This document shows, one piece after another, positions 1 to 44,191 of a DNA stretch of 64,000 nt (the stretch's first letter is position 1; every line of letters starts with the position of its first letter). The translations under genes were made by a program, and so were the position numbers. This stretch comes from Escherichia coli (GTDB taxonomy: Bacteria; Pseudomonadota; Gammaproteobacteria; Enterobacterales; Enterobacteriaceae). The stretch is taken from assembly GCF_016903815.1 (NCBI RefSeq), contig NZ_CP069973.1. One strand, written 5' to 3'. The notes below the pieces were generated by a model. The model worked only from the letters and a program-made list of their open reading frames with translations. It was not told the origin of the DNA and ran no database searches.

Positions 1-219
1 GCTGGCGGACACTGTACCGGCAAAATCAATGCCTGGCACCATTGGAAAGTGCCGGACGATAGGCCCGCGGCCCGTAATAGCCAGTGCGTCTTTGTAGTTG
101 ATAGATGAACAGTCGACATTGACCTCCACATCCCCCTGTGGCAGCTCGCTTTCAGCGATTTCAGCAATTTGGGCACTGTGGCGGTCATCCATCTTACTGA
201 TTAATAATGATTTAAACAT
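1..219 (-). CDS. YhdH/AcuI-like NADPH-dependent oxidoreductase (MDR superfamily). Only the N-terminal 73 codons are present; the gene continues past the left window edge.
   Basis: Hand translation of the minus strand from ATG (complement of 217-219) stays open to base 1: MFKSLLISKMDDRHSAQIAEIAESELPQGDVEVNVDCSSINYKDALAITGRGPIVRHFPMVPGIDFAGTVSAS. The NYKDALAITG...PMVPGIDFAGTV stretch matches my recollection of E. coli YhdH. It is missing from the ORF track because the window truncates it. Confidence 0.6.
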   Translation of the reverse strand, partial: MFKSLLISKMDDRHSAQIAEIAESELPQGDVEVNVDCSSINYKDALAITGRGPIVRHFPMVPGIDFAGTVSAS

Positions 220-872
220 TTTTTTTCTCGTCTTTCTGGTTTGATGTCATTGAGCTATAAAGTAGTCAATAAACAATATTGACCGATCGTCTAATAATCA
301 ACGCTGATATCCCAGTGTTTGTCAGAAAACAAGAATTGCTTTTCTTTTCATCAGGTTAAATCTATCTTTTTTGATTTATATCAAACCAGATTCGGTCTTC
401 AATTATATAGGCATCAATGTTAGCGGTCCTACAAGATACGCAGTCGATGCTTCAGGGCGTACTGATGAAATAAAACAAGTAGGCTGAGATTAGTTGGTCT
501 GCTCATCGCTCACAGCGGACCTTCAGCTTCGTTAGCCAAGCGCTGACATAGTTACCGATGTAGCGTGTTAATCTGTCGGGAGCATAGCCGAAATCACTTA
601 ATCCATTAGACTTCACCTAAAACTGCAAAAATTACCGTCTTTGTCACACTCACCGAGTTTAATCAAACTAACACTGTACATAGTGCGAACAAGAGCCAAC
701 CAGAAAGACTGTTCAGCATCAACAGTGAAGTTTTTCCCCGCCACTTCCCCGCAATTCCTCCGCAGTTTTCCCACTAGAGAGTTCGACACATCCCTTGCAT
801 ACCAACGCTTTGATTCAAATCTCGGTAGTGCATCCAATTAGTAGAATATGTGTTTTTCGATAAATGCTCCGA

Positions 873-1232
873 TCACTTTTTCGTGGATCTCAACTGAGCG
901 TGAGAAGCAGATTGTTTACGAGCCAACCGCTTAATGTGGGTGCGTAGCGTCAGATTATTACGCTCAATGCGTTGGGTGAATATTTTGCCGGTCAGATGCT
1001 TATTCTTCGGCACCACCCGGCCATAGCTGTCCCAGTCATCGCTGGTGAGCATGCCGATGTTGAAGGGTGTAAGCAGTGCCAGTAGCTCCCGGCACGTTTG
1101 ATTGGTTCGGGGACCAAAAGTGTAGGCCAGTACACCGCCTGTTTTGGTGTTGTACGCGTACCAGAGCCAGTGTAGCCGGGCTTTACTGCCAACGTAGCTC
1201 CATTGCTCATCAAGCTCGCAGATAAGCGCCAC
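873..1232 (-). pseudogene. insB: IS1 InsB' reading frame with a 3' frameshift
   Basis: The ORF reads ELDEQWSYVGSKARLHWLWYAYN...QRIERNNLTLRTHIKRLARK, then KQSASHAQLRSTKK*. The +1 frame from the same point reads TICFSRSVEIHEKVIGAFIEKHIFY*, which is the expected InsB-type C-terminus. This implies a 1-nt loss in the A-run (plus strand TTT at ~915-917). Confidence 0.75.
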
Positions 1233-1258
1233 ATCAGCATGGGCAACAGGCGAAGAAG

Positions 1259-1531
1259 TTATTTGCGTTGGCGCGAGTTTTTTAAAGTCCGGATGATGGT
1301 GTTAATACCAATTTTCAGTGTCCTGGCGGTATCGCGAACCCCGGCACCATTAAAGGCCATTTCAGTGATCATCTCTTTCATACCCGGCTTACGTGCTTGA
1401 TAAGTATAAGTGAGCTGAAACACACGGTGGCAGTCACGGCAGCGAAATCTGTCACGGCCTTTAGGGTTCTGACCATGGCGGTAAACCTGAGCTGACTGAC
1501 AACGGGGACAATGAATATTAACGCTGGCCAT
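1259..1531 (-). CDS. insA: IS1 InsA-like protein (divergent isoform)
   Basis: The 90-aa ORF MASVNIHCPRCQSAQVYRHGQNPKGRDRFRCRDCHRVFQLTYTYQARKPG... has the zinc-finger CxxC...CxxC plus HTH layout of IS1 InsA. It sits ~55 nt inside the IS end, as in IS1. Confidence 0.85.
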   Translation of the reverse strand: MASVNIHCPRCQSAQVYRHGQNPKGRDRFRCRDCHRVFQLTYTYQARKPGMKEMITEMAFNGAGVRDTARTLKIGINTIIRTLKNSRQRK

Positions 1532-1783
1532 GAGATAACCTCAAAAGCCCGTATTATACATCAGATTCAACCAATTAGAGGCATCACCCTTTCCTACATT
1601 CGTAGGACTTTGATTACATATAGCAAGGGTTAATTCTTATATACATAGAATAAATTAGGAATATAATGAATTTTATCGTGACGACCTTATTTATAATTAA
1701 TTTATATCGTCAGAGAAATTAGTGTCCACAACATGAAGCCTTACAAAGAGATTCTATGATTTAAAAAAAATAAGAGCCAGCTT

Positions 1784-3253
1784 ATGCATATCGATTCGAC
1801 TGAAAAAAATAATAAACAAAAGTTGGGCTTGCTTGCGCTAACATCCATTGTCGTGAGCTCGATGATCGGCAGCGGCGTTGACGGACTCCCCCAGAATATG
1901 GCGGAGAATTCTGCCGTGGGCCCGGTGGCGATAGCATGGATAGTCTGTGGTATCGGCATGTTTTTCATCTCCAGAACTTTTATCGTGCTGTCAAACATTA
2001 GACCTGATCTCCAGTCAGGAGTTTATATGTATGCCCGGGAAGGGTTCGGCCGATTTACGGCATTTAACGTCGCCTGGGGCTACTGGCTGATGACTATATT
2101 CAGCAACGTCGCCTTTGCCATTATGGTGATGGATACGCTGAATTATTTCTTACCAGGTGATTTCAAGGGAGGGAACAATATTCCTTCCGTTATCGGTGCC
2201 TCTTTGCTGATATGGGGATTCAACTTTTTAGTCCTCTCCGGTACCCGCATTGCCGGGTCGATTAACATCGTCGGCACGCTGGCCAAACTGATCCCGCTGG
2301 TGGCCTTTATTATTATTCTCATGCTGTTTATGAAGTACACCACGTTCGCAGATAACGTCTGGGGGCACAGCGCGAGTAAGGCCAGTCAGGACCTAGGCTC
2401 TATTTTCTCACAGGTAACTTCACCGCTTAGCGTGGCACTCTGGAGCTTCATCGGCGTTGAGGGGGCTGTCGCTCTTTCCGGTCGGGCCAAAAATAAACGC
2501 GACGTGGGTAAAGCCACATTCATTGGCTTCGTTGTATCACTGATTATCTGTCTGCTGGTCTCCATCCTGCCGTTTGGCGTGCTGACTCAACATGAGCTCA
2601 GCGCAATTCCAACCCCATCCACCGCCGGTATTCTGAAGATTGTTGTCGGTGAATGGGGGAAGATTATGATTATCTTGGGGGTGCTGATTTCGGTGCTTAC
2701 CAGCTGGCTGGCGTGGACCATCATCTGCGCCGAACTGCCTATGGTGGCCGCGCAGAACGGCACATTCCCGAAACCGTTCAGCAAAAAAAATGTGAAGGGT
2801 TCGGCCTCGGTTTCGCTTTATATAAGCAGTGCGTTTATGCAAATCGTCGTACTTCTGGTCTACTTTTCTAACGATGCCTGGCTTGCAATGCTGGCTATCT
2901 CTACCCTGACCGTTTTACCTGCGTATTTAATGACCACGGCATACCTGTTTAAACTATGTATTAGCGGCGAGTATGCCAGCTATACCACGAATCACAGCCG
3001 CAGCGCCGCGCTGGTCAGCAGTATTATCGGCTTTGTATTCTGCCTGTTTATGTTCTACGCCAGTGAAATCAAATATCTGGCGATGGTTCCGGTGCTGCTT
3101 ACGCTGGGCGTGCCCCTGTTTATCTGGGCAAGAAAAAAAGACGATCGCGCAGATAAAATATTTACGCTACGCGAACTGGCATTTTTTATTTTACTGCTGG
3201 TCCTCGACATCATTGTTTTTATTCTACTGCATTATAAAACGATACATTTTTAG
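1784..3253 (+). CDS. APC-superfamily basic amino acid/polyamine antiporter, ArcD/YdgI-like (paralog 1)
   Basis: A 489-aa polytopic hydrophobic protein. The motifs KLGLLALTSIVVSSMIGSGV.GLPQN, GVYMYAREGFG and LWSFIGVEGAVALSGRAKNKRDVGKAT closely parallel E. coli YdgI / ArcD as I recall them. It is co-directional with the decarboxylase 104 nt downstream. Confidence 0.85.
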   Translation: MHIDSTEKNNKQKLGLLALTSIVVSSMIGSGVDGLPQNMAENSAVGPVAIAWIVCGIGMFFISRTFIVLSNIRPDLQSGVYMYAREGFGRFTAFNVAWGYWLMTIFSNVAFAIMVMDTLNYFLPGDFKGGNNIPSVIGASLLIWGFNFLVLSGTRIAGSINIVGTLAKLIPLVAFIIILMLFMKYTTFADNVWGHSASKASQDLGSIFSQVTSPLSVALWSFIGVEGAVALSGRAKNKRDVGKATFIGFVVSLIICLLVSILPFGVLTQHELSAIPTPSTAGILKIVVGEWGKIMIILGVLISVLTSWLAWTIICAELPMVAAQNGTFPKPFSKKNVKGSASVSLYISSAFMQIVVLLVYFSNDAWLAMLAISTLTVLPAYLMTTAYLFKLCISGEYASYTTNHSRSAALVSSIIGFVFCLFMFYASEIKYLAMVPVLLTLGVPLFIWARKKDDRADKIFTLRELAFFILLLVLDIIVFILLHYKTIHF

Positions 3254-3357
3254 TCCAGATTAATTCACAGCAAGTTAAGGTGACGATAATGTCTGTTTCT
3301 TGGGCATGACATCCTCACAGTTAAATACTATCTGAACAGTAACAGTGGAGACACCTA

Positions 3358-5727
3358 ATGAAATTTAACCACAATCTTTTATTTATTTCCTCACAATATC
3401 TTGATGGCGACAACCCTTCGCAGCAGGTACTGGAAGAGCTTCAAACCGAACTCGCGGAACGCGGTTTTAAAATTCATATCACGCACCAGATCTCTGATGG
3501 ATTAAAAATCATCGAAAAAAGCCCCCAATACAGCGGGATTGGTTTTTACTGGGAGCCAGACAATCCGACCTTTGCAGAAGAGCTACAGCACTTTATCAGC
3601 ATATTCCGCAAAAGAAATGCCACGACGCCGCTGATAATTTTCTCAGAACAGAATATTACCGATCGTATCCCACTCGACGTCTTAAAAGAGGTCAGCGAAT
3701 ATGTTTATCTGTTCTCTGAATCCGCAGCCTTCACTGCCAATCGACTGTACTCCTTAGTCCACCGCTATGCGGATAAGCTTCTTCCTCCCTACTTTAAAAC
3801 CCTTAAGGACTTTACCGAGGACGGTGACTATTACTGGGACTGCCCGGGGCATATGGGGGGAATGGCCTATCTGAAACATCCTGTTGGCATTGAGTTCATT
3901 AACTTCTTTGGCGAAAACATGATGCGCGCTGATATTGGCGTGGCTACCGCGGAGATGGGGGATTATCTGATCCACGCCGGACCGCCTAAAAAATCGGAAG
4001 AAATTGCGGCCCGACTGTTTGGCTCTGATTGGACCTTCTACGGTGTTTCCGGCTCATCGGGGTCGAACCGTATTGTGGCCCAGGCTGCGGTTGGCGCAGA
4101 TGAAATTGCCATTATTGACCGAAATTGCCACAAGTCACTTAATCATGGCCTGACCTTGTCTCAGGCAAGGCCGGTTTACCTGAAACCTACCCGCAACGCG
4201 TGGGGGCTGATTGGGCCTATCCCGACCGGACGCCTGAAGAAGGCCAGTATTGATGCGCTGGTGGCAAACAGCCGACTGGCATCTGGTGCGGTCAGCCAGT
4301 CCCCGTCCTACGCCGTGGTAACCAACTGCACCTATGATGGCTTCTGTTATAACGTGAACGATGTAGTCAGACACCTGGGTGAAAGCGCACCGCGCATCCA
4401 TTTTGATGAAGCATGGTATGCCTATGCGCGTTTCCATCCGCTATACCAGAGTCGCTATGCAATGGACGCGGAGGAAACGCCAAATCGTCCAACCCTATTC
4501 GCCGTACAGTCCACCCATAAAATGCTGCCCTCACTCTCCATGGCCTCAATGATTCATGTGAAGAAAAGCGATCGCGCGCCGCTTAATTTCGATGACTTTA
4601 ACGATGCCTTTATGATGCACGGCACGACCTCACCCTACTACCCGATCATTGCATCAATTGATGTGGCAGTAAGCATGATGGAGGGTGAATCCGGTTATTC
4701 GCTTGTGCAGGAGTCAATTGAAGAAGCGATTGCCTTCCGTAAAGCCGTGGTCAGCGTCAAGCGCCAGCTCCAGGAGCAGGAAGGTGGTGACGCCTGGTTC
4801 TTCGATGTGCTTCAGCCAACCGAAGTGCAGGACAGCGATTCTGGGCAGCGATACAGTTTTGAAGAGGCACCCGTATCGCTGCTGAGCCACAGCGCCGACT
4901 GCTGGTCGCTGCGCTCCGGTGAGCGCTGGCACGGTTTTGCCGATGATGATCTGGTCGAAACCAACAGTATGCTCGATCCAGTAAAAGTGACCCTGACTTG
5001 TCCAGGGATCGGCCCGAAGGGAGAATACCAGAAAAACGGTATTCCGGGATATTTGCTGACCCGTTTTCTCGATGACCGTCGCATTGAAATTGCCCGTACT
5101 GGTGACTACACCGTGCTGATCCTGTTCTCCGTCGGCATCACCAAAGGCAAATGGGGAACTCTGATTGAAAGCCTGCTGGCCTTTAAAAAGCATTACGACA
5201 ATGACGATCTGGCCACAGATGCTATCCCGTCGCTGAAAGCGCATTCTCCACACTACGACACGCTAACCCTCAAGGAGCTATGTCAGATAATGCATGAAAA
5301 AATGGATGAGCTGGAGCTGATGTCGCATATCAACGACGCGGTAAACACCGATCCGGAACCAGTTATGACCCCGGCAGAAGCCTATCAGAAAGTCGTACGC
5401 TACAAAACCGAGCATATCCGGCTGGATGATTTTAGCGGCAGAATTGCCGCCAGCATGCTCGTCCCATATCCCCCAGGCATTCCTGTACTGATGCCGGGCG
5501 AACGGATGCCGCAAGGTAACAAGGGCATTATTGGCTATCTGCGCGCCCTGCAGGAATTCGATAAGCAATTCCCAGGTTTTGAACATGAGATCCAGGGCGT
5601 TAACGTCGATGAAGACGGGGACTTCTGGGTCAGAGCGATTGTGGAAGAAGAACGCGATGGGCAGTCGCTACCCGGCCACATAACCTTTAAACGCCAGGTC
5701 TCTGGTATTAAAAAGGGCCGCCAGTAG
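3358..5727 (+). CDS. Wing-domain PLP-dependent Orn/Lys/Arg decarboxylase (fold type I), AdiA-like; substrate unknown
   Basis: A 789-aa ORF with a GGAG SD 9 nt upstream. Family motifs are DRNCHKS, VVTNCTYDG, IHFDEAWYAYARF, QSTHKML (PLP lysine), VPYPPGIP and FPGFEHE. Overall colinearity with AdiA (755 aa) is from memory, and the C-terminus is ~25 aa longer. Confidence 0.9.
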   Translation: MKFNHNLLFISSQYLDGDNPSQQVLEELQTELAERGFKIHITHQISDGLKIIEKSPQYSGIGFYWEPDNPTFAEELQHFISIFRKRNATTPLIIFSEQNITDRIPLDVLKEVSEYVYLFSESAAFTANRLYSLVHRYADKLLPPYFKTLKDFTEDGDYYWDCPGHMGGMAYLKHPVGIEFINFFGENMMRADIGVATAEMGDYLIHAGPPKKSEEIAARLFGSDWTFYGVSGSSGSNRIVAQAAVGADEIAIIDRNCHKSLNHGLTLSQARPVYLKPTRNAWGLIGPIPTGRLKKASIDALVANSRLASGAVSQSPSYAVVTNCTYDGFCYNVNDVVRHLGESAPRIHFDEAWYAYARFHPLYQSRYAMDAEETPNRPTLFAVQSTHKMLPSLSMASMIHVKKSDRAPLNFDDFNDAFMMHGTTSPYYPIIASIDVAVSMMEGESGYSLVQESIEEAIAFRKAVVSVKRQLQEQEGGDAWFFDVLQPTEVQDSDSGQRYSFEEAPVSLLSHSADCWSLRSGERWHGFADDDLVETNSMLDPVKVTLTCPGIGPKGEYQKNGIPGYLLTRFLDDRRIEIARTGDYTVLILFSVGITKGKWGTLIESLLAFKKHYDNDDLATDAIPSLKAHSPHYDTLTLKELCQIMHEKMDELELMSHINDAVNTDPEPVMTPAEAYQKVVRYKTEHIRLDDFSGRIAASMLVPYPPGIPVLMPGERMPQGNKGIIGYLRALQEFDKQFPGFEHEIQGVNVDEDGDFWVRAIVEEERDGQSLPGHITFKRQVSGIKKGRQ

Positions 5728-5801
5728 GCGGGGGAAAGAACAATACCGTCGGATCGCCTGCAATCCGACGGCAATATTATAGAATAGCTGAGGGAAACGT
5801 T

Positions 5802-7301
5802 ATGGCAGAGCAATCTTCAGATGTAAAAAATAGTGACAATAGCGCCGGAGGACATAAGCTGGGGCTTATATCCCTCATCGCTATTGTCGTTAGCTCCATG
5901 CTGGGAGGCGGCGTTTTCAGTCTGCCGCAAAACACGGCGGCCTCTTCTGCACTAGGGCCAGTAATCATTGCATGGATTATTGCCGGGATCGGTATTTATT
6001 TTATCGCAAACTCCTTTCGCGTACTATCAGATCTGCGCCCGGACCTTCAGGCTGGAGTGTATATGTATGCCCAGGAAGGTTTTGGTTCCTTTATTGGCTT
6101 TAACGTCGCCTGGGGCTACTGGCTGATGACCGCATTTGGCAACGTTGCCTTTGCGGTAATTTTAATGGATGCTTTTAATCAGTTTATGCCGGGGGTTTTT
6201 ACGGATGGTAATAATCTGAACTCCATTATCTGCGGCTCAGTGCTGATCTGGGGCTATAATTTTCTTGTTCTGTCCGGGACGAAAGTGGCCGGATTTGTTA
6301 ACACCTTGGGAACCATCGCCAAGCTCGTCCCTCTGATCCTATTCGTATTACTGCTGGGTGTGCTGATCGATTATTCGGACCTGTTTAAAAACTTTTGGGG
6401 AGAATCACCCGCGATCCTCAGTGGCAACGGAAATGACGCCGCACCAGTATCGCTGCTGTCTCAGATTCTGGCACCGATGACCGTAACGCTCTGGGCCTTT
6501 ATTGGCGTCGAGGGAGCGGTTGTTCTATCCGGACGTGCCAAAAATAAACAGGACGTAGGGAAAGCCACACTGATCGGCTTTCTGCTGGCGCTAATTATTT
6601 ATATGTTAATGTCCATTCTGCCGTTCGGTGTAATGCCTCAGGCAGAACTAGCGCAGGTCAGTAACCCCTCTACCGCAGGCGTGCTCGCCCACGTTGTCGG
6701 TCAGTGGGGCGACTGGCTGATGAGCGCGGGGCTGATTATTTCTGTTCTGGCCGGCTGGCTTGCCTGGACCATGCTATGCGCTGAAATACCGATGGTAGCA
6801 GGACAGAAAGGCGCTTTCCCGCGCGCGTTTGCCCGAACGAACAGTAAACAGGCGGCCAATGTGTCACTGTGGGTTAGTAGCTTTGTGATGCAGGCGGCCA
6901 TGTTACTTGTTTATTTTTCAAATAATGCTTGGACCACCATGTATAATATCAGTGCGCTGATGGTTGTTCCGGCCTATATTACCACCACGCTGTATCTGAC
7001 CAGTATTTGCAGAAACGGAAAATATGATCAGTATGCAAAAAAAGGCCGCAGGCTGGCTTTGTCCAGCGGTGTTTTAGGCTCGCTATTCTGTCTGTTTATT
7101 CTTTACGCCAGCCAGATTGAGTATGTTGCATTAATTCCTATCCTGTTGACCTGTGGTCTGCCGGTCTTTATCTGGTCAAGAAAAGAAAAAAATGATGGTC
7201 AGCCGATATTTACCAAAAAAGAGCTGATTTATCTGATTATGCTGTTGCTGTGCGATATTATCGTCGTTGCCCTGTTTATTGGTGGATATTTAAAGGTATA
7301 A
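5802..7301 (+). CDS. APC-superfamily basic amino acid/polyamine antiporter, ArcD/YdgI-like (paralog 2)
   Basis: A 499-aa polytopic protein with a GAGGGA SD. It has the canonical KLGLISLIAIVVSSMLGGGVFSLPQN TM1 motif and LWAFIGVEGAVVLSGRAKNKQDVGKAT. By eye it is clearly paralogous to the 1784-3253 product but well diverged. Confidence 0.85.
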   Translation: MAEQSSDVKNSDNSAGGHKLGLISLIAIVVSSMLGGGVFSLPQNTAASSALGPVIIAWIIAGIGIYFIANSFRVLSDLRPDLQAGVYMYAQEGFGSFIGFNVAWGYWLMTAFGNVAFAVILMDAFNQFMPGVFTDGNNLNSIICGSVLIWGYNFLVLSGTKVAGFVNTLGTIAKLVPLILFVLLLGVLIDYSDLFKNFWGESPAILSGNGNDAAPVSLLSQILAPMTVTLWAFIGVEGAVVLSGRAKNKQDVGKATLIGFLLALIIYMLMSILPFGVMPQAELAQVSNPSTAGVLAHVVGQWGDWLMSAGLIISVLAGWLAWTMLCAEIPMVAGQKGAFPRAFARTNSKQAANVSLWVSSFVMQAAMLLVYFSNNAWTTMYNISALMVVPAYITTTLYLTSICRNGKYDQYAKKGRRLALSSGVLGSLFCLFILYASQIEYVALIPILLTCGLPVFIWSRKEKNDGQPIFTKKELIYLIMLLLCDIIVVALFIGGYLKV

Positions 7302-7443
7302 GTCCGAGTTAAATCTTTACTGGGCTAGTAATGCCGCCTTTTAAACAAGAAGGGCGGCAATCTTACTGAAATTAGTATGCTGCAAATCGGTAATGCTGCC
7401 AACTTACTGATTTAGTGTATGATGGTGATTTTAAGGTGCTTGC

Positions 7444-7719
7444 GTGGCTTCCATTTCCATCAGATGTCCTTCCTGCTCCGCTACTGAAGGCGTGGTGCGT
7501 AACGGCAAAAGCACTGCCGGACATCAGCGCTATCTCTGCTCTCACTGCCGTAAAACATGGCAACTGCAGTTCACTTACACCGCTTCTCAACCCGGTACGC
7601 ACCAGAAAATCATTGATATGGCCATGAATGGCGTTGGATGCCGGGCAACTGCCCGCATTATGGGCGTTGGCCTCAACACGATTTTACGTCACTTAAAAAA
7701 CTCAGGCCGCAGTCGGTAA
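7444..7719 (+). CDS. insA: IS1 InsA
   Basis: The 91-aa [94 protein letters not shown] is canonical InsA apart from two N-terminal substitutions. Confidence 0.95.
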
Positions 7720-8141
7720 CCTCGCGCATACAGCCGGGCAGTGACGTCATCGTCTGCGCGGAAATGGGCGAACAGTGGGGCTATGTCGGGGCTAAATCGC
7801 GCCAGCGCTGGCTGTTTTACGCGTATGACAGGCTCCGGAAGACGGTTGTTGCGCACGTATTCGGTGAACGCACGATGGCGACGCTGGGGCGTCTTATGAG
7901 CCTGCTGTCACCCTTTGACGTGGTGATATGGATGACGGATGGCTGGCCGCTGTATGAATCCCGCCTGAAGGGAAAGCTGCACGTAATCAGCAAGCGATAT
8001 ACGCAGCGAATTGAGCGGCATAACCTGAATCTGAGGCAGCACCTGGCACGGCTGGGACGGAAGTCGCTGTCGTTCTCAAAATCGGTGGAGCTGCATGACA
8101 AAGTCATCGGGCATTATCTGAACATAAAACACTATCAATAA
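7638..8141 (+). CDS. insB: IS1 InsB' frame (expressed as the InsAB' transposase by -1 frameshifting)
   Basis: The 167-aa ORF contains ...[48 protein letters not shown]...[13 protein letters not shown]. It overlaps the insA 3' end in the -1 frame. Confidence 0.95.
7695..7701 (+). promoter_or_regulatory. IS1 programmed -1 ribosomal frameshift heptamer (A6C)
   Basis: AAAAAAC lies within TTAAAAAACTCAGG at the insA/insB' overlap. This is the established IS1 frameshift signal. The same motif is present in copy B (complement of 10574-10580). Confidence 0.8.
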
Positions 8142-8156
8142 GTTGGAGTCATTATC

Positions 8157-8966
8157 TAACCGTAGCGTTTATTACGCGCAGGTGACGCGTCCTGTTAATG
8201 TGCAAAGAATTGACTTACGAAGTCGGGTGAGGGCTTTCCATGCTCTCAGTCGTGGCGCAGCCGGTAGCCGTGCAATCAGTCAGATGTTGCGCCAGAGTAG
8301 CGTTGATGCAGGCCGGTGGCTGGCACGACGACTGATGCGGGAATGCGGGCTGACAAGTCGACAGATGGTTAAACATCACTACCGGGTCAACGAAGACAAA
8401 AGTCCGCCATTGCCAAATTTACTGAACCGGCAATTTCACCCCGCCGCACCAGACCGCGTCTGGTGCGGCGACATCAGTTTTATTCGCCTGCATGACAAAT
8501 GGTGTTAGCTCGCGCTCGTTGTTGATTTATATTCACGGCGGATTACCGGTTCAGCCCTCTCATTAACCGCTGATGCTGAGTTGGTGTGTAGGGCTTTGCG
8601 TAATGCACTGGAAACACGATCACGTGATGGCCGTCTGCTGTTTCATTCAGATCAAGGTGTTCAGTATAAAAGCAATAAATACAGAAAGTTACTCTGGCGT
8701 TATGGGGTAATGCAAAGTATGAGTTGCAGAGGGAATGGCCTGGATAATTCGCCGATGGAAAGAGTCTTTCGCAGCCTTAAAAATGAATGGCTTCCGAAAG
8801 GTGGTTATGGTGATTTTATCCATGCGGTACGTGATATAAACCAGTGGATTAATGGTTATTACAACGTTTATCGACCTCACACGAACAACGATGGTTTACC
8901 GCCTTGCTTACATGAAGAAAAGTGGAAACAGGTTATTCCGGTGTCCTGATTTTGTGAACCACTACA
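8157..8966 (+). pseudogene. IS3-family (IS911-like end) transposase OrfB remnant, 5'-truncated by IS1 copy A and carrying an in-frame TAG
   Basis: A single frame reads ...[31 protein letters not shown]...[52 protein letters not shown]...[15 protein letters not shown] (rve/DDE integrase core), with a stop at 8506-8508. No OrfA or left IR is present. The right end TGTAGTGGTTCACAAAATCAGGACACC (complement from 8966) resembles IS911-type TG...CA termini. Confidence 0.75.
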
Positions 8967-9115
8967 ATAATCCTTTTTCACAGACTTGTCAGCAGCCAGC
9001 ATTTATGTTCTTTTACCTGCGGGAATTTATCCGTCTGCCTGTCGGGACTACTCTGTCATACAGAAATCAGGTAGGAATAAATTGTAGTGGAAAGTCGATG
9101 TTTACCGGATGACTG

Positions 9116-9667
9116 ATGCGCGCTTGTACACAGACAGTGTGTTTCAGTAATATGGAGAATAATGAAATGAATAACACAGACACATTAGAAAAAATAATCA
9201 GACACCAAAAAAACAAAGACCCCGCATATCCCTTTCGGGAACATTTGTTGATGCAGCTCTGTATTCGCACAAATAAAAGAATGCAGGATAATATATCTGA
9301 ATTTCTGGGGGCGTATGGAATAAATCACTCAGCATATATGGTTCTCACCACATTATTCGCAGCGGAGAACCATTGTCTGTCACCTTCAGAGATAAGCCAG
9401 AAACTTCAGTTTACCAGAACTAATATTACCCGCATTACAGATTTTTTAGAAAAAGCCGGATATGTAAAAAGGACGGATAGCAGGGAGGATCGCCGTGCTA
9501 AAAAAATCAGTCTGACATCTGAAGGTATGTTTTTTATTCAGAGGCTCACTCTTGCACAAAGCATGTATCTGAAAGAAATCTGGGATTATCTGACTCATGA
9601 TGAACAGGAACTGTTTGAAGTCATTAATAAAAAATTACTGGCACATTTTTCTGATGCCAGCTCATAA
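9116..9667 (+). CDS. MarR-family transcriptional regulator, MprA(EmrR)/PapX-SfaX-like
   Basis: The ORF-track protein is 183 aa. The winged-helix region SPSEISQKLQFTRTNITRITDFLEKAGYVKRTDSREDRRAKKISLTSEG parallels MprA [49 protein letters not shown] (from memory). Alternative in-frame starts are at 9152 and 9167. The 9167 start has GGAG 9 nt upstream and gives 166 aa. Confidence 0.8.
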   Translation: MRACTQTVCFSNMENNEMNNTDTLEKIIRHQKNKDPAYPFREHLLMQLCIRTNKRMQDNISEFLGAYGINHSAYMVLTTLFAAENHCLSPSEISQKLQFTRTNITRITDFLEKAGYVKRTDSREDRRAKKISLTSEGMFFIQRLTLAQSMYLKEIWDYLTHDEQELFEVINKKLLAHFSDASS

Positions 9668-10133
9668 AGTGCGAAATATCTGAGGATGCTGGATAGCTTC
9701 AGGCAAGAGAATAATGATTCTTGCAGATGTGTTTTTCCGGATACAAAAACAAAAGTAAAAAATTGCAGCGCCAGGCCACCTTTCAAAGCAGGGAGGCTTG
9801 TACCGCGTCGAAAATTTCAGCCAGTTAATGTAATTGTCTGAACCAGGCACTTCGCCCGGGCAGGAGAAGGAGCGTGGTTGCGGTCATCCTGTATACTGAA
9901 GTCGTTATGAAGGAATAATACAAATAATTGCCCGTTTTCTCTGTACGATAGAGGCAGGTGTGTATGATTGCATCACTATGTTTTTGTGATATAAAAAACT
10001 AAATGGTGAGATATGCATTTTAAAATATAACAAAAATCACCATGAAATAAGAATAATTATCCACGGAGAACATAAACTGCAGACTGTTACAATGCATGCT
10101 GTTCATCTTGACAATGTCGGTAATGACTCCAAC

Positions 10134-10637
10134 TTATTGATAGTGTTTTATGTTCAGATAATGCCCGATGACTTTGTCATGCAGCTCCACCGATTTTGAG
10201 AACGACAGCGACTTCCGTCCCAGCCGTGCCAGGTGCTGCCTCAGATTCAGGTTATGCCGCTCAATTCGCTGCGTATATCGCTTGCTGATTACGTGCAGCT
10301 TTCCCTTCAGGCGGGATTCATACAGCGGCCAGCCATCCGTCATCCATATCACCACGTCAAAGGGTGACAGCAGGCTCATAAGACGCCCCAGCGTCGCCAT
10401 CGTGCGTTCACCGAATACGTGCGCAACAACCGTCTTCCGGAGCCTGTCATACGCGTAAAACAGCCAGCGCTGGCGCGATTTAGCCCCGACATAGCCCCAC
10501 TGTTCGCCCATTTCCGCGCAGACGATGACGTCACTGCCCGGCTGTATGCGCGAGGTTACCGACTGCGGCCTGAGTTTTTTAAGTGACGTAAAATCGTGTT
10601 GAGGCCAACGCCCATAATGCGGGCAGTTGCCCGGCAT
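10134..10637 (-). CDS. insB: IS1 InsB' frame
   Basis: A 167-aa ORF identical in protein sequence to the copy A InsB' ORF. Confidence 0.95.
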
Positions 10638-10831
10638 CCAACGCCATTCATGGCCATATCAATGATTTTCTGGTGCGTACCGGGTTGAGAAGCGGTGTAA
10701 GTGAACTGCAGTTGCCATGTTTTACGGCAGTGAGAGCAGAGATAGCGCTGATGTCCGGCAGTGCTTTTGCCGTTACGCACCACGCCTTCAGTAGCTGAAC
10801 AGGAGGGACAGCTGATAGAAACAGAAGCCAC
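10556..10831 (-). CDS. insA: IS1 InsA
   Basis: A 91-aa canonical InsA ([21 protein letters not shown]...). Confidence 0.95.
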
Positions 10832-11360
10832 TGGAGCACCTCAAAAACACCATCATACACTAAATCAGTAAGTTGGCAGCATCACCCAATCTGCTGACAG
10901 ACGAAGATAATGAACCCGTTATGGTTTTTAACGGAGAGAGGAATGTACTGGCAGACAGTCTGAAACCACAGCCTCTGATTCTTCCGGTCAAGGGAAAATA
11001 AGCGTAATGTTCATCACCAGATTATGTACGATGAGTTTTCCACTGTTTATAGCAATTATCTTGCTAATAACCAGACAGGAGTAACCAGACCAACCGAAAA
11101 CACCGGGAAGGTGATTACCCGCTGGCAGAGGAAATCCGGTTTTTTTTGATGTCAGCCATAACGTGTTTGACAATAAAGCATCATGAAAGGGTGTTAATGA
11201 GTCCATGGGATAATTCATAAAAATAATTTACTGTGTTATCCTTTTCAAAAGAAATATTCAGAAGATAACCCCTGGCTGACAACCAGGGGAAGGGGGCATT
11301 AACAGTGTTATTATTGGTGAATAAATTATTACTTGTGTGCAGGATACACTAATGCAATAT

Positions 11361-12434
11361 CTACTGATACTGTATGCCAGTATGTTTCATGCCTGCCGCT
11401 GAAAACGGCAATATCCAGGGCCAGACATATTCACCATTCATATTTCTGCATTTCTGTACAATTTTCTCAGAAAGCGTCTCATCAATTCTTTCACGCAACT
11501 TCTCCTGCTGTCTTAAAATACTTTCGCATATTTCGAAATCATCTTCCTGCATCAGCATTTCGGCGCATTTAATGATTTCTGCCCGTTCATGCAGCACAGA
11601 GGAATGATTATAGAGCCAGTTTACAAACAGCAATGCTTCCGGATATTGCCCCCATAACGGGTGGTATGTGGCATAATAATCTTCGGCAGTATCCGGACCG
11701 CCTGAAAAGTTATGCCATACAGCAAGTGGAAATGGATGCAGATTTCCGCACAGTATTTCTGCGATGTAAGTATTTGCCGCAAAGCCGCGACGAAATGCAG
11801 TTGCAGCTTTTACCAGTTCCCCATTAAGAAAATGCAGAAGGCCGAGTTCATACCAGTAAGGTGAAAATTCATCTGCATGTTCCTGCAGTATATGGCGTGC
11901 CTGTTCATGAGCGCCAGTGCGTAACAGTTCCGGTCCCAGTAGCCAGCGTGCACCATGATTATCTTCGGGATTGTAATCCAGTATTTTTTCAATGAGCATG
12001 ATGGCATCCTGATGACGCCGTAAATGTGCATTTGCCAGGATTGCCGCATAGAGGGCACGAAGAAAAGGTCGGTTGTCAGGATGTATCCAGATGATTCTGC
12101 CACTGAAACCTTCAGGGATAAGACGATTGCCAACTGCCAGCCCTTTAAGGGCAGCATTCAGCGCCTTACGCGGGGCATTCTGCTCCAGAAATACGTATGC
12201 CAAGTGAGCGTGTACATCAATAAAGTCATTCTCCTGTCGGGCAAGGCGCCTGAGTTTGTTGATGTAACTTGTTTCGCTGATTTCATCCGCATCGTATGCA
12301 TCAATCAGTTCTTCAAACTCATCCAGCAACGAGCCAAACCAGGTTTCCGGAAATATGAAACAGCCCTGGTTATCGTTCACTTCAAAGCGTAATTTGCCAG
12401 TCATATTCTGAACCTGTAAAAAAGGATGGACCAT
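11361..12434 (-). CDS. Hypothetical helical-repeat (TPR-like) protein, island cargo next to the integrase
   Basis: A 357-aa ORF. Its A/L-rich amphipathic repeats (e.g. AHLAYVFLEQNAPRKALNAALKGL, RALYAAILANAHLRRHQDAIMLIEKILDYNPEDNHGARWLLG, YWYELGLLHFLNGELVKAATAFRRG) look TPR-like. I recognised no catalytic motif. The more likely start is ATG at 12404 (AGG ~10 nt upstream). Confidence 0.6.
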   Translation of the reverse strand: MVHPFLQVQNMTGKLRFEVNDNQGCFIFPETWFGSLLDEFEELIDAYDADEISETSYINKLRRLARQENDFIDVHAHLAYVFLEQNAPRKALNAALKGLAVGNRLIPEGFSGRIIWIHPDNRPFLRALYAAILANAHLRRHQDAIMLIEKILDYNPEDNHGARWLLGPELLRTGAHEQARHILQEHADEFSPYWYELGLLHFLNGELVKAATAFRRGFAANTYIAEILCGNLHPFPLAVWHNFSGGPDTAEDYYATYHPLWGQYPEALLFVNWLYNHSSVLHERAEIIKCAEMLMQEDDFEICESILRQQEKLRERIDETLSEKIVQKCRNMNGEYVWPWILPFSAAGMKHTGIQYQ

Positions 12435-12659: not shown

Positions 12660-13925
12660 TCACCTTTTCAGTGGATTGTTAACTTTTGCATATTCAAACG
12701 GACTGATACACTCCTCCCTGTTTGCATCCAGAAAATCTGCCCACCATTGCAGCATAAGCCGACGTTCTTCCAGATGTTCTGCTTTATGAATATACGCGGC
12801 ACGTACTCCGTTGCGCTCCTGATGACTCATCTGACGTTCAACCGCATCTCTTGACCATAAGCCGGATTCAATCAATGCACTGCACGCCATCGCCCGGAAT
12901 CCATGGCCACAGACTTCCTTGGTTGTGTCATACCCCATCACCCTCAGGGCTTTATTTACAGTATTTTCACTGATTGGTTTACGCGGGTCATGTGCACCCG
13001 TAAATATCAGACCATTTTCACCTGCCCATGTCTGAAGTTCTGTCAGTATGGCTACAGCCTGTTTACTGAGTGGCACAAGATGTGGTGTCCGCATCTTGGA
13101 GCCCCGGTGTGAGAATTTTACGCCAGGCAGAGGTTCGCGTTCGGCTGGAATAGTCCACATGGCATTGTCAATATCAATTTCAGACCAGCGGGCATATCTG
13201 AGTTCACTGGAACGAATAAAAACCAGTAAATTCAGCATAACGGCAAGCCGGGTGACAGGCTGGCCTTTATAACCGTCAATACGCGACAGAAGTTCAGGCA
13301 GGCGTGAAAGATTCAGAGCGGGGCGATGCTGGCGTTTTACCGTGGTCAATGCACCAGCCATATCCAGAGCCGGGTTATATCTGATGATGCCAGACTGTAC
13401 GGCGTAACGCATTACAGCAGATATTCTTTGCTGCAGACGACTAGCGATTTCATAAATTTGTTTTGCTTCTGCAGCACGAACAGGGATAAGCAGGTCCGGG
13501 GTATTGAGTGTTGTGATATCCCGGTTGCCGATAAAGGGGAAAACGTGTGTCTCGAGGCTTTTGAGTACTTTATCGCTGTGTGATTGTGCCCATTGTTTAT
13601 TACTGGCATGCCAGCGTCGTGCAATATGTTCAAAAGAGAGCTGTAAATCAGGGACTACTTTTTTAACTCTTTTCTGTTCGCAAGGGTCAATCCCCTCTGA
13701 AATCAGTTTTCGGGCCTCATCCCGTTTTGTACGAGCTTCGGAGAGAGAAACTTCTGGATACACACCAAGTGCCAGAGTCTTCTCCTTACCCAGAATACGA
13801 TAACGGAGACGCCAGTAACGGGAACCATTAGGATGAACCAGCAGGAACATGCCGGCCCCGTCAGTGAGTTTATAAGCCTTGTCAGTGGGCTTTGCAGCCC
13901 GGATTTTTGCGTCAGTCAGTGCCAT
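12660..13925 (-). CDS. int: P4/CP4-57-type tyrosine integrase
   Basis: A 421-aa ORF MALTDAKIRAAKPTDKAYKLTDGAGMFLLVHPNGSRYWRLRYR... (typical P4-integrase N-terminus). The C-terminal catalytic region has HGFRAMA...RAAYIH. It lies directly beside the 3' end of tRNA-Phe in the same orientation. Confidence 0.92.
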   Translation of the reverse strand: MALTDAKIRAAKPTDKAYKLTDGAGMFLLVHPNGSRYWRLRYRILGKEKTLALGVYPEVSLSEARTKRDEARKLISEGIDPCEQKRVKKVVPDLQLSFEHIARRWHASNKQWAQSHSDKVLKSLETHVFPFIGNRDITTLNTPDLLIPVRAAEAKQIYEIASRLQQRISAVMRYAVQSGIIRYNPALDMAGALTTVKRQHRPALNLSRLPELLSRIDGYKGQPVTRLAVMLNLLVFIRSSELRYARWSEIDIDNAMWTIPAEREPLPGVKFSHRGSKMRTPHLVPLSKQAVAILTELQTWAGENGLIFTGAHDPRKPISENTVNKALRVMGYDTTKEVCGHGFRAMACSALIESGLWSRDAVERQMSHQERNGVRAAYIHKAEHLEERRLMLQWWADFLDANREECISPFEYAKVNNPLKR

Positions 13926-14084
13926 AGTTCAGCCTTCTGAATGCGTTAAAGAGGGTATAAATTCTGTCGAACTGGGGTATGCCCACAATTATACCCACAC
14001 AATGAGGTTGATGTGGGGGGAATCTGGTTGAGTTCGGTAGAATTGATTTGGAGGCAGGACGCTTAAATCGTGGCGTCCTGGAAT

Positions 14085-14111
14085 GAAAAACGGACCTCCG
14101 TGGAGGTCCGT
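14085..14111 (-). terminator. Rho-independent terminator downstream of tRNA-Phe
   Basis: On the minus strand, the hairpin CGGACCTCCACGGAGGTCCG is followed by TTTTT, 12 nt after the tRNA 3' end. Confidence 0.7.
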
Positions 14112-14122
14112 TGATATGAATT

Positions 14123-14198
14123 TGGTGCCCGGACTCGGAATCGAACCAAGGACACGGGGATTTTCAATCCCCTGCTCTACCGACTGAGCTATCCGGGC
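14123..14198 (-). tRNA. pheU: tRNA-Phe (GAA)
   Basis: The minus strand reads GCCCGGATAGCTCAGTCGGTAGAGCAGGGGATTGAAAATCCCCGTGTCCTTGGTTCGATTCCGAGTCCGGGCACCA, which is E. coli tRNA-Phe with encoded CCA. Its position next to yjdC-dsbD identifies it as pheU. Confidence 0.97.
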
Positions 14199-43771: not shown

Positions 43772-43847
<76 letters not shown>

Positions 43848-43883
43848 AAATTTGAAAAGTGCTGCAAAGCACAGACCACCCAA

Positions 43884-44004
43884 TCGCAGTATTTCGAATT
43901 GCGACAAGGCGGCAACTGAACGAATCCTTGGGAGCTTACAAAAGTAAGTGACTAAGGTGAGTGAAGGCAGCCAAGGCAGTAGCGGTTCGAAAGACGAAGA
44001 TTAA
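43884..44004. repeat. ERIC (IRU) intergenic repeat element inside the glyV-glyX spacer
   Basis: ...GAATCCTTGGGAGCTTACAAAAGTAAGTGACTAAGGTGAGTGAAGGCAGCCAAGGCAGTAGCGGTTCGAAAGACGAAG... matches the ERIC core (GAATCCCCAGGAGCTTACAT / AAGTAAGTGACTGGGGTGAGCG, i.e. the ERIC1R/ERIC2 primer regions). It is an imperfect palindrome centred at ~43940. Confidence 0.8.
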
Positions 44005-44080
<76 letters not shown>

Positions 44081-44115
44081 AAATTTGAAAGTGCTGTAAA
44101 GCACAGACCACCCAA

Positions 44116-44191
<76 letters not shown>

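Follow-up and report, generated by a model that had tools for sequence, protein, structure and literature searches.

Decarboxylases of the OKR fold in Escherichia coli are usually counted as five, AdiA, CadA, LdcC, SpeC and SpeF, each with a known substrate. Enzymes and exchangers need not occur in equal numbers, and Lactococcus lactis has two exchangers, ArcD1 and ArcD2, in one arginine deiminase pathway. In the three-component lysine/ornithine system of Lactobacillus saerimneri 30a, two decarboxylases share one exchanger (cited in PMC6257575). The gene order of the locus described here is also that of the hdcT1-hdc-hdcT2(-hisRS) cluster of Morganella and other Gram-negative bacteria, a transporter-decarboxylase-transporter arrangement with two putative antiporters (PMC12072131).

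Here we analyze a 64,000-nucleotide stretch of E. coli DNA (contig NZ_CP069973.1; hereafter the window) in which a pyridoxal phosphate (PLP) decarboxylase gene, DC, lies between two exchanger genes, T1 and T2. We found no published characterization of this cassette in the literature searched, and it appears to be uncharacterized to date. We put at roughly 60% the probability that the cassette is a real decarboxylation/antiport module, with a substrate that is probably not lysine, ornithine or arginine and with two exchangers that divide the labor between them.

Layout of the locus

The ORF listing of the window has the three co-directional reading frames and the two short gaps exactly as the first-pass annotation had described them (Table 1). 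Neither gap yields significant RNA structure (z = +0.8 between T1 and DC; z = -1.4, below significance, between DC and T2), and the hairpin downstream of T2, which is without a clear T-run, was equaled by 1 of 200 shuffles. Given the short, unstructured internal gaps and the strong hairpin 3' of T2, T1-DC-T2 has the layout of a single operon. The promoter candidate is the best of its region, in which the total of such sites is no greater than shuffle expectation. It sits in the AT-rich stretch, native to the cassette and about 195 nt long, that precedes T1.

IS1 elements border the cassette on both sides. The transposase on the left is annotated by PGAP as a frameshifted IS1 family transposase in a genome with an identical module; the terminal inverted repeat of this element was read ending near 1588, and its outer end at about 821 is an estimate from IS1 length. 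The integrase was placed from the annotation of an identical genome, with coordinates shifted by a fixed offset of 13301. Beyond it lie yjdC/dicD-dsbD-cutA-dcuA-aspA, matching K-12 at pheU. The earlier assignment of the island to pheU is borne out by the tRNA-Phe and integrase beside it, but the cassette itself is not tied to pheU, since the corresponding block of CFT073 lies in the selC island. Similarly, cadCBA is indeed absent from the window, as had been remarked, but this reflects the extent of the window only: in a genome with an identical module, cadC is found beyond the opposite end of an island of about 75 kb.

Table 1. Coordinates in the window of the cassette, its putative signals, its borders and selected DC codons
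Feature	Position	Strand	Description
Left-border IS1-family element	821..1588	-	Frameshifted transposase; ORFs 873-1232, 1259-1531
Promoter candidate	1640..1667	+	Sigma-70-like TATACA-16-TATAAT, 10/12 match
T1	1784..3253	+	APA-family exchanger, diverged paralogue, 489 aa; AA_permease_2 domain
T1-DC gap	3254..3357	+	104 nt; 3' end is Shine-Dalgarno-like GGAGA
DC	3358..5727	+	Wing-domain AAT-fold PLP decarboxylase, distinct subfamily, 789 aa
DC pocket codons	3841..3945	+	C162 (3841-3843), G194 (3937-3939), A196 (3943-3945); align with LdcI T149, S181, S183
DC K388 codon	4519..4521	+	PLP-binding lysine, within QSTHK; aligned with CadA K367, AdiA K386
DC A579 codon	5092..5094	+	Ala at the position of the Lys/Orn pocket Glu (CadA E526), AdiA T571
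DC C-terminal tail	5647..5724	+	Basic, residues 764-789 ending KKGRQ; clade-specific
DC-T2 gap	5728..5801	+	74 nt; 13-bp palindrome 5744-5773 and Shine-Dalgarno-like GAGGGA
T2	5802..7301	+	APA-family exchanger, conserved core paralogue, 499 aa
Terminator-like hairpin	7326..7368	+	3' of T2; MFE -27.3 kcal/mol, z = -3.85
Right-border IS1	7389..8164	+	Inverted repeat read at 7389; insA/insB ORFs 7444-8141
Island integrase and tRNA-Phe	12660..14198	-	pheU at 14123-14198; attachment end of island

DC belongs to a separate clade of the OKR fold

As predicted from its motifs, DC matches the Pfam domains OKR_DC_1_N, OKR_DC_1 and OKR_DC_1_C in that order, scoring 58.9 (cutoff 29.3), 483.6 (27) and 157.4 bits (24.2). 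With E = 6e-145 for OKR_DC_1, chance is no explanation for the match. Its translation contains DRNCHKS, TNCTYDG, HFDEAWYAYARF, QSTHKML, PYPPGIP and FPGFEHE. Residues H258, D350 and K388 align with CadA H245, D330 and K367, the stacking His, the pyridine-N Asp and the PLP lysine, and this catalytic HDK set is kept in 117/117 DC homologues.

The view that DC resembles AdiA most holds in part. AdiA is its best match in both NCBIfam and the PDB, and the DC clade joins AdiA at a deep node of the neighbor-joining tree, but global identity to AdiA (39%) is no higher than to LdcC (39%) and close to that for CadA (37%; SpeF, 30%), and the pocket is unlike that of AdiA. DC scored 740.3 bits on the AdiA equivalog model NF011603 (cutoff 1167) and 622, 562 and 429 bits on the models for lysine and ornithine decarboxylases, LdcI/LdcC/LdcA and SpeC/SpeF (cutoffs 968, 1056 and 794). 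With all NCBIfam equivalog cutoffs missed and no match in the literature searched, the module does not qualify as orthologous to a characterized system, as the first reading of the locus had supposed.

Members of the DC clade, which is separate from the known enzymes, are 56-87% identical and come from Enterobacterales (the Proteus vulgaris group, P. mirabilis and Providencia among the carriers), Alcaligenaceae, Commensalibacter and others. The C-terminal tail of DC is missing from AdiA, CadA and SpeF; its terminal KKGRQ is nearly invariant across the clade and reads KKGRS in the Methanosarcina sister. Judged by its sequence, DC is the founder of its own subfamily within the OKR fold.

The side-chain pocket of DC contains no acidic residue

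In LdcI, the epsilon-ammonium group of the substrate is held by T149/S181/S183/E526 (PMC12091041). We assigned the corresponding positions of DC by alignment to this one ligand-bound LdcI structure, and the resulting four-letter pocket is CGAA in 109 of 117 DC homologues, CGSA in 4 and AGSA in 4, with an acidic residue at the four positions in none (0/117). The same positions read TSSE in lysine enzymes of three lineages, CCAE in ornithine enzymes and AGET in three AdiAs. Comparing A159/G191/E193/T571 of AdiA with C162/G194/A196/A579 of DC, only the Gly is common to both, and the two acidic positions (E526 of Ldc/Odc and E193 of AdiA) are Ala in 17/17 clade members aligned. We know of no ligand-bound AdiA structure, and the role given here to AdiA E193 is itself inferred. 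A signature for Lys, Orn or Arg is found in 37 of 53 family-wide representatives, and elsewhere in the family the pocket signature follows substrate more closely than does overall similarity. An acid-free pocket also occurs in a 945-aa protein of the Mycobacterium tuberculosis glutamate-decarboxylase type.

Because its side-chain pocket is without an acidic residue, DC probably acts on something other than lysine, ornithine or arginine, and the basic substrate expected by the first-pass annotation becomes doubtful. Most likely, the side chain of its amino acid substrate would be uncharged or weakly basic.

The cassette could instead be a second system, likewise gained horizontally, for one of the canonical basic amino acids; it would then most likely convert arginine to agmatine, or else act on ornithine or lysine, with the cation held by other acidic residues. 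We regard this as unlikely, if still a serious contender. Conserved acidic residues near the DC pocket (D161, E199 and D202) could hold a cationic group. G194 is common with AdiA; C162, A196, D161 and an MGD motif are common with ornithine decarboxylases, and the pocket segment scores highest against the L30a Odc. Given these shared residues, it is possible that DC holds a basic substrate in another manner, and the standing of AdiA as best match and tree neighbor, along with the membership of T1 and T2 in a basic amino acid/polyamine antiporter subfamily, points the same way. Against it stand the non-acidic pocket positions throughout the clade, the family-wide tie of pocket signature to substrate and the AdiA equivalog score far under its cutoff. 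Weakly in line with a non-canonical substrate, Moeller tests for lysine, ornithine and arginine typically come out negative in two carriers of the cassette, Providencia and the Proteus vulgaris group.

More speculatively, the cassette may turn a neutral or weakly basic amino acid into an amine that is not a polyamine; in the most striking case, the DC clade would be the Proteus leucine/valine decarboxylase, EC 4.1.1.14. That enzyme is known from the biochemistry of the 1950s-60s as PLP-dependent and thiol-sensitive and is not known to have been cloned. We consider this proposal a long shot. If it were true, trace amines such as isoamylamine or isobutylamine could be produced in the gut and urinary tract by some 9% of E. 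coli, CFT073 among them, and the fold would gain its second case of a non-basic amino acid substrate, after the M. tuberculosis glutamate decarboxylase.

The cassette is mobile and keeps its three genes intact

Of the complete E. coli genomes, about 9% carry the cassette, among them that of the uropathogen CFT073. Positions 1-8164 of the window are 99.07% identical to the CFT073 selC island, and the shared block (8.2 kb) stops at the outer end of the right IS1. Relatives are also found on plasmids, for example in Salmonella and P. rettgeri. Across several classes we found 17 loci with DC and an adjacent co-oriented exchanger; the order T1-DC-T2 is present in 12 loci, from Enterobacterales, Alcaligenaceae and Commensalibacter, and more distant lineages have DC-T-T or DC-T. 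The cassette is horizontally mobile, and the intact trio, its synteny across bacterial classes and its IS1-bounded position on the pheU island agree with the earlier description of a self-contained, horizontally acquired module.

A porin gene lies 3' of T2 in Providencia, in Bordetella and on the P. rettgeri plasmid. Two circumstantial links to acid were seen: a DUF308/HdeD-like gene directly upstream of the cassette in Serratia, and acid-stress-type genes beside a related plasmid exchanger linked to a PSD-family decarboxylase. No conserved linked regulator or leader was found at the cassette loci.

Expression of the cassette in E. coli is uncertain, since IS1 trims its native upstream region to about 195 nt. 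This truncation, the IS1 copies on both sides, the missing regulator and the pseudogenes and IS remnants in which the surroundings are rich would fit a silent cargo, an IS-bounded fragment cut from its native regulation and without a role in fitness. We find this improbable: 494 genomes and two different islands preserve all three ORFs intact, at 99% identity or more, and the promoter-like site and terminator have been kept. Purifying selection across genera is also strong (dN/dS 0.02-0.05 for all three genes; 0.048 for T1 and 0.022 for T2), although this is not proof of selection within E. coli.

T1 and T2, two diverged exchanger paralogues

Both permeases carry the expected AA_permease_2 domain (Pfam, E about 1e-46 each) and pass TIGR00905, the model for basic amino acid/polyamine antiporters (T1 486.7 bits, T2 493.0 bits; cutoff 409.05). 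Both miss the ArcD equivalog TIGR03810 (441.3 and 449.8 bits; cutoff 591), and T1 also misses the AdiC equivalog cutoff. We rejected them as histidine/histamine antiporters, as they miss the cutoff of NF040512, histam_anti_2 (T1 437.3 bits, T2 415.5 bits; cutoff 725), and the adjoining enzyme has the OKR fold and is not Hdc. The motifs quoted in the first-pass annotation all occur in the translations, and GVEGAV(A/V)LSGRAKNK(R/Q)DVGKAT is common to both permeases, but SSMLGGGVFSLPQN is present in T2 only, T1 having SSMIGSGVDGLPQN at the same motif.

The assignment of the permeases to the ArcD/YdgI type did not survive the phylogeny. YdgI groups with the arc-operon ArcDs (Staphylococcus, Azospirillum), and T1 and T2 lie on another branch with HdcC and exchangers paired with pyruvoyl (PSD-family) decarboxylases; the latter are their nearest relatives outside the cassette (42-44% identity, sister bootstrap 94.5). 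They stand apart from the housekeeping ArcD/YdgI.

T1 and T2 are 55% identical, in keeping with their description as diverged paralogs, and each has its own orthologue clade (bootstrap 95 for T1, 93.5 for T2) that mirrors the enzyme tree. On these trees, they are old paralogues kept as separate orthologue groups, and the duplication is older than the spread of the cassette across classes. At AdiC positions, T1 has the invariant derived residues 26 S, 29 D, 100 S, 239 C and 289 S; its changes touch the carboxylate-binding Ser26 position and include a unique Asp29 and a Cys at the otherwise universal Tyr239. The T2 binding site looks ancestral. In both, the distal pocket M96/T97/F104 has a lower polarity than its counterparts in ArcD, HdcC and the PSD-linked relatives. 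Where there is just one exchanger, as in the DC-T loci and the Salmonella plasmid, it is of the T2 type. That T1 and T2 are merely redundant isoforms, performing the same exchange for extra capacity, is barely credible: 152 positions are invariant in both groups, which also agree in the majority of AdiC-site columns, but both copies of this old duplication have been kept with 19 fixed T1 differences, several on the site-lining helices TM1/3/8/10, and T1 changes faster (orthologue identity 61-78%, against 72-85% for T2) and is missing from some loci, T2 from none.

Discussion

In the decarboxylation/antiport cycle that we infer for the cassette, an exchanger would bring the amino acid into the cytoplasm, where the PLP decarboxylase would swap its alpha-carboxylate for a proton and release CO2; the more positively charged amine would then exit in exchange for fresh substrate. 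The net consumption of protons and export of charge could provide acid protection and/or proton-motive force. DC and the T2-type exchanger would form the working core. T1 would be an old duplicate whose remodeled binding site serves a new transport job; it may, for instance, differ in affinity, in direction or in the pH range at which it works, or handle a second substrate/product pair. The route through the outer membrane may be completed in some genera by a FomA-type porin.

DC is a sixth E. coli enzyme of the OKR fold, carried by about 1 genome in 11, the standard uropathogen CFT073 included, with an intact catalytic center, a pocket unlike any characterized one and its own pair of exchangers. 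Knowledge of its substrate would bring to light either a new pathway, for acid resistance or for energy, or a new microbial amine in E. coli, Proteus, Providencia, Hafnia, Serratia and Bordetella of the gut and urinary tract. The pocket code TSSE/CCAE/AGET/CGAA offers a cheap way to re-annotate relatives now called 'arginine decarboxylase' on similarity alone, and T1 and T2 provide a natural experiment on binding-site divergence after the duplication of an exchanger.

Among known systems, AdiA-AdiC (AR3 of E. coli) shares with the cassette the fold, domain order and catalytic His/Asp/Lys of the enzyme and the pairing of a decarboxylase with an APC-superfamily exchanger. It differs in its AGET pocket, where DC has CGAA, and in lacking the conserved C-terminal tail of DC, which belongs to a separate clade at 39% identity; AdiC is 23-27% identical to T1 and T2, of which the cassette has two, and neither an AdiY-type or AraC-type regulator nor adiC is among the neighbors. 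CadA-CadB and SpeF-PotE likewise combine the enzyme fold with an operon-borne exchanger, but the pocket Glu of these more distant enzymes (E526/E532) is Ala in DC, CadB and PotE are 20-25% identical to T1 and T2, and no CadC or SpeFL-type leader was found at the cassette. ArcD and YdgI belong to the same APA subfamily (TIGR00905) at 34-40% identity, but differ in the ArcD cutoff that T1 and T2 miss and in their branch of the tree, and no arc genes lie near the cassette. On plasmids of Photobacterium damselae and Enterobacter cancerogenus, an APA exchanger sits beside a PSD-family (pyruvoyl) gene, adjacent to a decarboxylase as T1 and T2 are; these uncharacterized pairs have a single exchanger and a different decarboxylase fold. 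Enzyme and exchanger numbers are also unequal in L. saerimneri 30a, but in the reverse of the cassette arrangement, and in L. lactis ArcD1/ArcD2, like the cassette, but in an arginine deiminase rather than a decarboxylase pathway.

The Morganella hdc cluster has the same layout. Its histidine decarboxylase, of the group II PLP type, is unrelated to DC, and it has hisRS, which the cassette does not. Its exchangers are of the same APA subfamily, the histam_anti_2 and ArcD models score T1 and T2 about equally, and the likeness of the two layouts is one of gene order. Two exchangers per enzyme, the feature singled out in the first-pass annotation, are real in the cassette but have a precedent in the hdcT1-hdc-hdcT2 of Morganella (PMC12072131).

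An uncharacterised decarboxylase between two exchangers

The first-pass annotation had proposed an uncharacterised, horizontally acquired decarboxylase/antiport module, in which a PLP decarboxylase of the wing-domain Orn/Lys/Arg fold (DC) lies between two APA-family exchangers (T1 and T2). This core claim holds, as the proteins miss the equivalog cutoffs and no paper on them was found. The cassette is a variant of a well-known system type and a real finding; it occurs in organisms that have been studied very thoroughly, and it can be tested directly. Its three co-directional ORFs lie exactly where they had been placed, separated by gaps of 104 and 74 nt, and have the expected Pfam domains (OKR_DC_1_N/OKR_DC_1/OKR_DC_1_C in DC, AA_permease_2 in T1 and T2). 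The quoted motifs are all present, with a single exception: T1 has SSMIGSGVDGLPQN versus SSMLGGGVFSLPQN in T2.

None of the NCBIfam equivalog models accepts T1, DC or T2. DC scores 740 bits against a cutoff of 1167 for AdiA, 622 against 968 for LdcC, 562 against 1056 for the lysine decarboxylase model NF011929 and 429 against 794 for Odc. T1 and T2 score 441 and 450 for ArcD (cutoff 591), 437 and 415 for the Gram-negative histidine/histamine antiporter (725) and 145 and 155 for AdiC (574), and the sole model that they pass is TIGR00905, a broad APA subfamily (487 and 493, cutoff 409). PGAP gives these proteins generic names only, in every genome, and labels such as 'arginine decarboxylase' and 'amino acid permease', under which the protein collection lists them, are similarity-based. 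We found no characterisation in the literature for the protein accession, the island context, the presumed CFT073 locus tags c4497-c4501 or the enzyme subfamily, and the candidate papers make no mention of the genes. Carriel et al. (PMC6257575) note a lysine decarboxylase that branches inside a group described by them, and according to a 2026 paper on an M. tuberculosis glutamate decarboxylase of DC's fold, most family sequence clusters are without annotation.

Between the left IS1 and T1 lie about 195 nt of native, AT-rich DNA with a candidate promoter. Each internal gap has a Shine-Dalgarno-like sequence at its 3' end and folds no better than its shuffles (z = +0.8 and -1.4), with no attenuator seen, and a strong hairpin lies within the 87 nt after T2 (z = -3.85 versus shuffles). 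This arrangement is consistent with the three genes being transcribed together and ending at a terminator of their own. Sequences upstream of T1, compared in 13 loci, could not be aligned across genera and match no Rfam family; they thus offer no hint of the substrate such as a SpeFL-like leader or a riboswitch would give. The DC-T2 gap also holds a perfect palindrome, terminator-like on the - strand, in a gap whose overall fold is not significantly better than that of shuffles.

Features of the window and of the comparison loci (L numbers; coordinates per locus)
Feature	Location	Strand	Remark
Left IS1-family element	end near 1588		frameshifted transposase
Sigma-70-like candidate site	1640-1667		10/12 match; within ~195 nt upstream of T1
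T1	1784-3253	+	ORF, 489 aa
DC	3358-5727	+	ORF, 789 aa
Basic C-terminal tail of DC	5647-5724		residues 764-789 (~26), ending KKGRQ; conserved in clade
Palindrome	5744-5773		13 bp
T2	5802-7301	+	ORF, 499 aa
Right IS1, inverted repeat start	7389
Right IS1, whole element	~7389-8164	+
IS3 remnant	8143-8949
MarR-family regulator gene	9116-9667		intact
IS1 copy	~10119-10886	-
TPR-protein region	10960-12421
tRNA-Phe (pheU)	14123-14198	-
Three tandem tRNA-Gly(GCC) genes	43772-44191
Porin genes	L004:10085-11137, L007:10100-11122, L010:10062-11120, L012:9990-11012, L095:10044-11093
Commensalibacter intestini A911 T1 orthologue	L079:4597-5889		430 aa
Methanothrix second decarboxylase paralogues	L078:1533-3824, L080:2602-4902
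Exchanger/PSD-family gene pair, Photobacterium damselae	L089:1795-4657
Exchanger/PSD-family gene pair, Enterobacter cancerogenus	L090:5992-8792

DC belongs to a subfamily of its own

DC had been thought to resemble AdiA most. The likeness is not specific, with the same global identity of 39% to AdiA and LdcC, 37% to CadA and 30-31% to SpeF/SpeC; in a neighbor-joining tree its clade and a sister clade meet AdiA only at a deep node. The clade is compact (787-795 aa, 56-87% identity to DC), with members in Klebsiella sp., Citrobacter sp., Providencia, Proteus, Hafnia, Serratia fonticola, Salmonella diarizonae, Bordetella avium/holmesii/trematum, Alcaligenes, Commensalibacter, Acinetobacter, Orbus, Ignatzschineria, Photobacterium, Shewanella and others. 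Its basic C-terminal tail has no counterpart in AdiA, CadA or SpeF; in sister proteins from Methanosarcina the tail ends KKGRS. On these sequence comparisons, DC is best placed in its own subfamily. The sister clade (~50% identity; Acidobacteria, Methanosarcina, Methanothrix) has no transporter neighbours, and an exchanger is adjacent in none of its loci. Two Methanothrix MAG loci encode a second decarboxylase paralogue (38-39% to DC) a few kb upstream of the first. Two full-length relatives, P0166 and P0169 (42% and 38% to DC), lack the PLP lysine, with the triads HDE and EDS, and may be pseudoenzymes of the DC fold.

The predicted substrate pocket

Cryo-EM of Hafnia alvei LdcI with a lysine analogue placed the epsilon-ammonium pocket at T149, S181, S183 and E526 (PMC12091041); we transferred these positions to other enzymes by alignment alone. 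They read T-S-S-E in CadA, LdcC and an independent LdcA lineage, C-C-A-E in SpeC and SpeF (C-C-A in the segment visible of Lactobacillus 30a Odc), and A-G-E-T in AdiA of E. coli, Salmonella and P. stuartii, the role of AdiA E193 being putative. The wider family, sampled with 53 full-length representatives, has T-S-S-E in 29, C-C/P-A-E in 6 and A-G-E-T/P in 2. Several T-S-S-E proteins are nearer overall to AdiA than to CadA, and one family representative, a 945-aa protein with the acid-free pocket A-S-T-N, looks from its length and architecture to be of the mycobacterial glutamate-decarboxylase type. Both observations argue that pocket residues follow substrate better than overall similarity does.

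The DC clade has the pocket C162-G194-A196-A579: 109 of 117 full-length homologues read this way, 4 others have C-G-S-A, and a last 4, from the sister clade, have A-G-S-A. An acidic residue occurs at the four positions in none of the 117, all of which retain the catalytic H-D-K. As read from the alignment, this is a new, small-residued and uncharged pocket. A substrate other than lysine, ornithine or arginine (neutral or hydrophobic, histidine, or citrulline-like) is therefore our preferred reading, with a probability of about 0.6 on a rough split. The basic substrate first expected is probably wrong, since the aligned positions carry no acid. Conserved D161, E199 or D202 near the pocket might be a source of charge. 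Our rough split makes arginine an unlikely substrate and ornithine or lysine slightly less likely again. For a substrate outside these three, a possible lead is the leucine/valine decarboxylase of Proteus vulgaris (EC 4.1.1.14), a PLP-dependent orphan enzyme, for which, as a lead for DC, we found no supporting literature.

Two diverged exchangers

The permeases had been called ArcD/YdgI-type, a label that does not hold. In a tree that included genuine arc-operon ArcDs, pyruvoyl-type HdcC and two plasmid relatives, YdgI grouped with the ArcDs (43-48% identity) and T1 and T2 fell outside that group. The exchangers linked to DC group together (bootstrap 87.5), and their sister (bootstrap 94.5) is a pair of plasmid-encoded exchangers, from Photobacterium damselae and Enterobacter cancerogenus, linked to phosphatidylserine-decarboxylase-family (PSD, pyruvoyl) genes; HdcC is the next branch out. 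In both plasmids the exchanger lies directly upstream of the PSD-family gene, and on the Enterobacter IncF plasmid the pair adjoins DUF308/HdeD-like, YfdX and EmrKY-like genes. The exchanger and PSD-family pair looks like another uncharacterised decarboxylase/antiporter module.

We compared the exchangers at the columns that line the AdiC substrate site in AdiC-arginine structures. T2 has G26, F/Y29, G100, Y239 and G289, and its site looks ancestral, while T1 has the invariant derived residues S26, D29, S100, C239 and S289. M96/T97/F104 are common to T1 and T2, where ArcD, HdcC and the PSD-linked exchangers have small or polar residues and Tyr. Across their length, T1 and T2 have 152 common invariant positions and 19 fixed differences. 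The overall pattern agrees more closely with functional divergence than with redundancy. An attempt to infer the substrate from the binding site did not succeed: the columns are unlike those of AdiC, ArcD and HdcC, yet indicate no particular substrate.

Core and accessory genes

The T1-DC-T2 order recurs across classes: of the loci fetched, 12 have it, and these come from Enterobacterales, Alcaligenaceae (Betaproteobacteria) and Commensalibacter (Alphaproteobacteria). Orthologues of T1 (61-78% identical, bootstrap 95) and T2 (72-85%, bootstrap 93.5) each form their own clade, with the same Enterobacterales/Alcaligenaceae split as DC. Where calculable, and with synonymous sites saturated, dN/dS is 0.048 for T1, 0.032 for DC and 0.022 for T2. 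The T1 orthologue of Commensalibacter intestini A911 appears truncated at its N terminus, starting inside TM2, beside intact DC and T2; candidate explanations are a pseudogene, a frameshift and an assembly error.

Other orders are DC-T-T (Ignatzschineria, one alphaproteobacterial MAG) and DC-T (Crenobacter, a Lentisphaeria MAG and another MAG), and a conjugative Salmonella plasmid carries DC-T2 only. Flanking genes vary by genome (ABC transporter, LysR, AraC or AsnC regulators, amidohydrolase). No conserved downstream amine-metabolising enzyme was found across the compared loci; only a FomA-family porin recurs (NCBIfam NF049910, 405 bits versus a cutoff of 125; no Pfam match). It lies directly after T2 in Providencia rustigianii, three Bordetella species and a P. 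rettgeri plasmid, giving a four-gene form, and is missing from the E. coli, Klebsiella sp., Citrobacter sp. and Serratia loci. The Salmonella plasmid, the DC-T loci and the patchy porin argue that the core is DC plus a T2-type exchanger, to which T1 and the porin are additions.

Islands and mobility

A tyrosine recombinase adjoins tRNA-Phe, followed by the K-12 pheU neighbours yjdC/dicD, dsbD, cutA, dcuA and aspA, which places the cassette on a pheU island, as had been claimed. It is not tied to pheU, as CFT073 carries it in a selC island. Among 5426 complete E. coli genomes, 494 carry the module at 99% identity or more. Window positions 1-8164 match the CFT073 selC island as a single block (8.2 kb, 99.07% identity) that stops at the right IS1's outer end and continues past the window start. 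The absence of cadCBA from the window, noted earlier, is uninformative, because cadC lies ~75 kb away, on the far side of the island, in a genome that carries the identical module at pheU.

A composite IS1 transposon around the cassette was not established: the flanking IS1s are different isoforms in opposite orientation, and the block runs beyond the window start. Separately, the inverted IS1 copies bracketing the IS3 remnant and the MarR-family gene make 7389-10886 look like a composite transposon; the MarR gene is unlinked to the cassette in CFT073. The TPR-protein region is ~90% identical to its CFT073 selC counterpart, beside differing integrases. Near the cassette, the selC island (L088) also carries a Qat anti-phage system and a SLATT/nucleotide-binding pair. 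The cassette-bearing pheU island (~75 kb) of strain 7/2 (L087) also has, outside the window, a complete grp glycyl-radical propanediol microcompartment locus, pseudouridine-utilisation genes, a CbtA/YeeU toxin-antitoxin pair and T6SS remnants. The tRNA-Gly genes of the window were taken as the ordinary core-chromosome glyVXY cluster.

Comparison with known systems

The best-supported reading of the cassette is a precursor/product exchange cycle that would be driven by proton-consuming decarboxylation; DC and T2 would be its engine and T1 a specialised second carrier. By analogy, this would be the cycle logic of AdiA-AdiC, CadA-CadB, SpeF-PotE and the histidine systems. The two-carrier layout of T1-DC-T2 has a precedent in hdcT1-hdc-hdcT2, which is alike in gene order.
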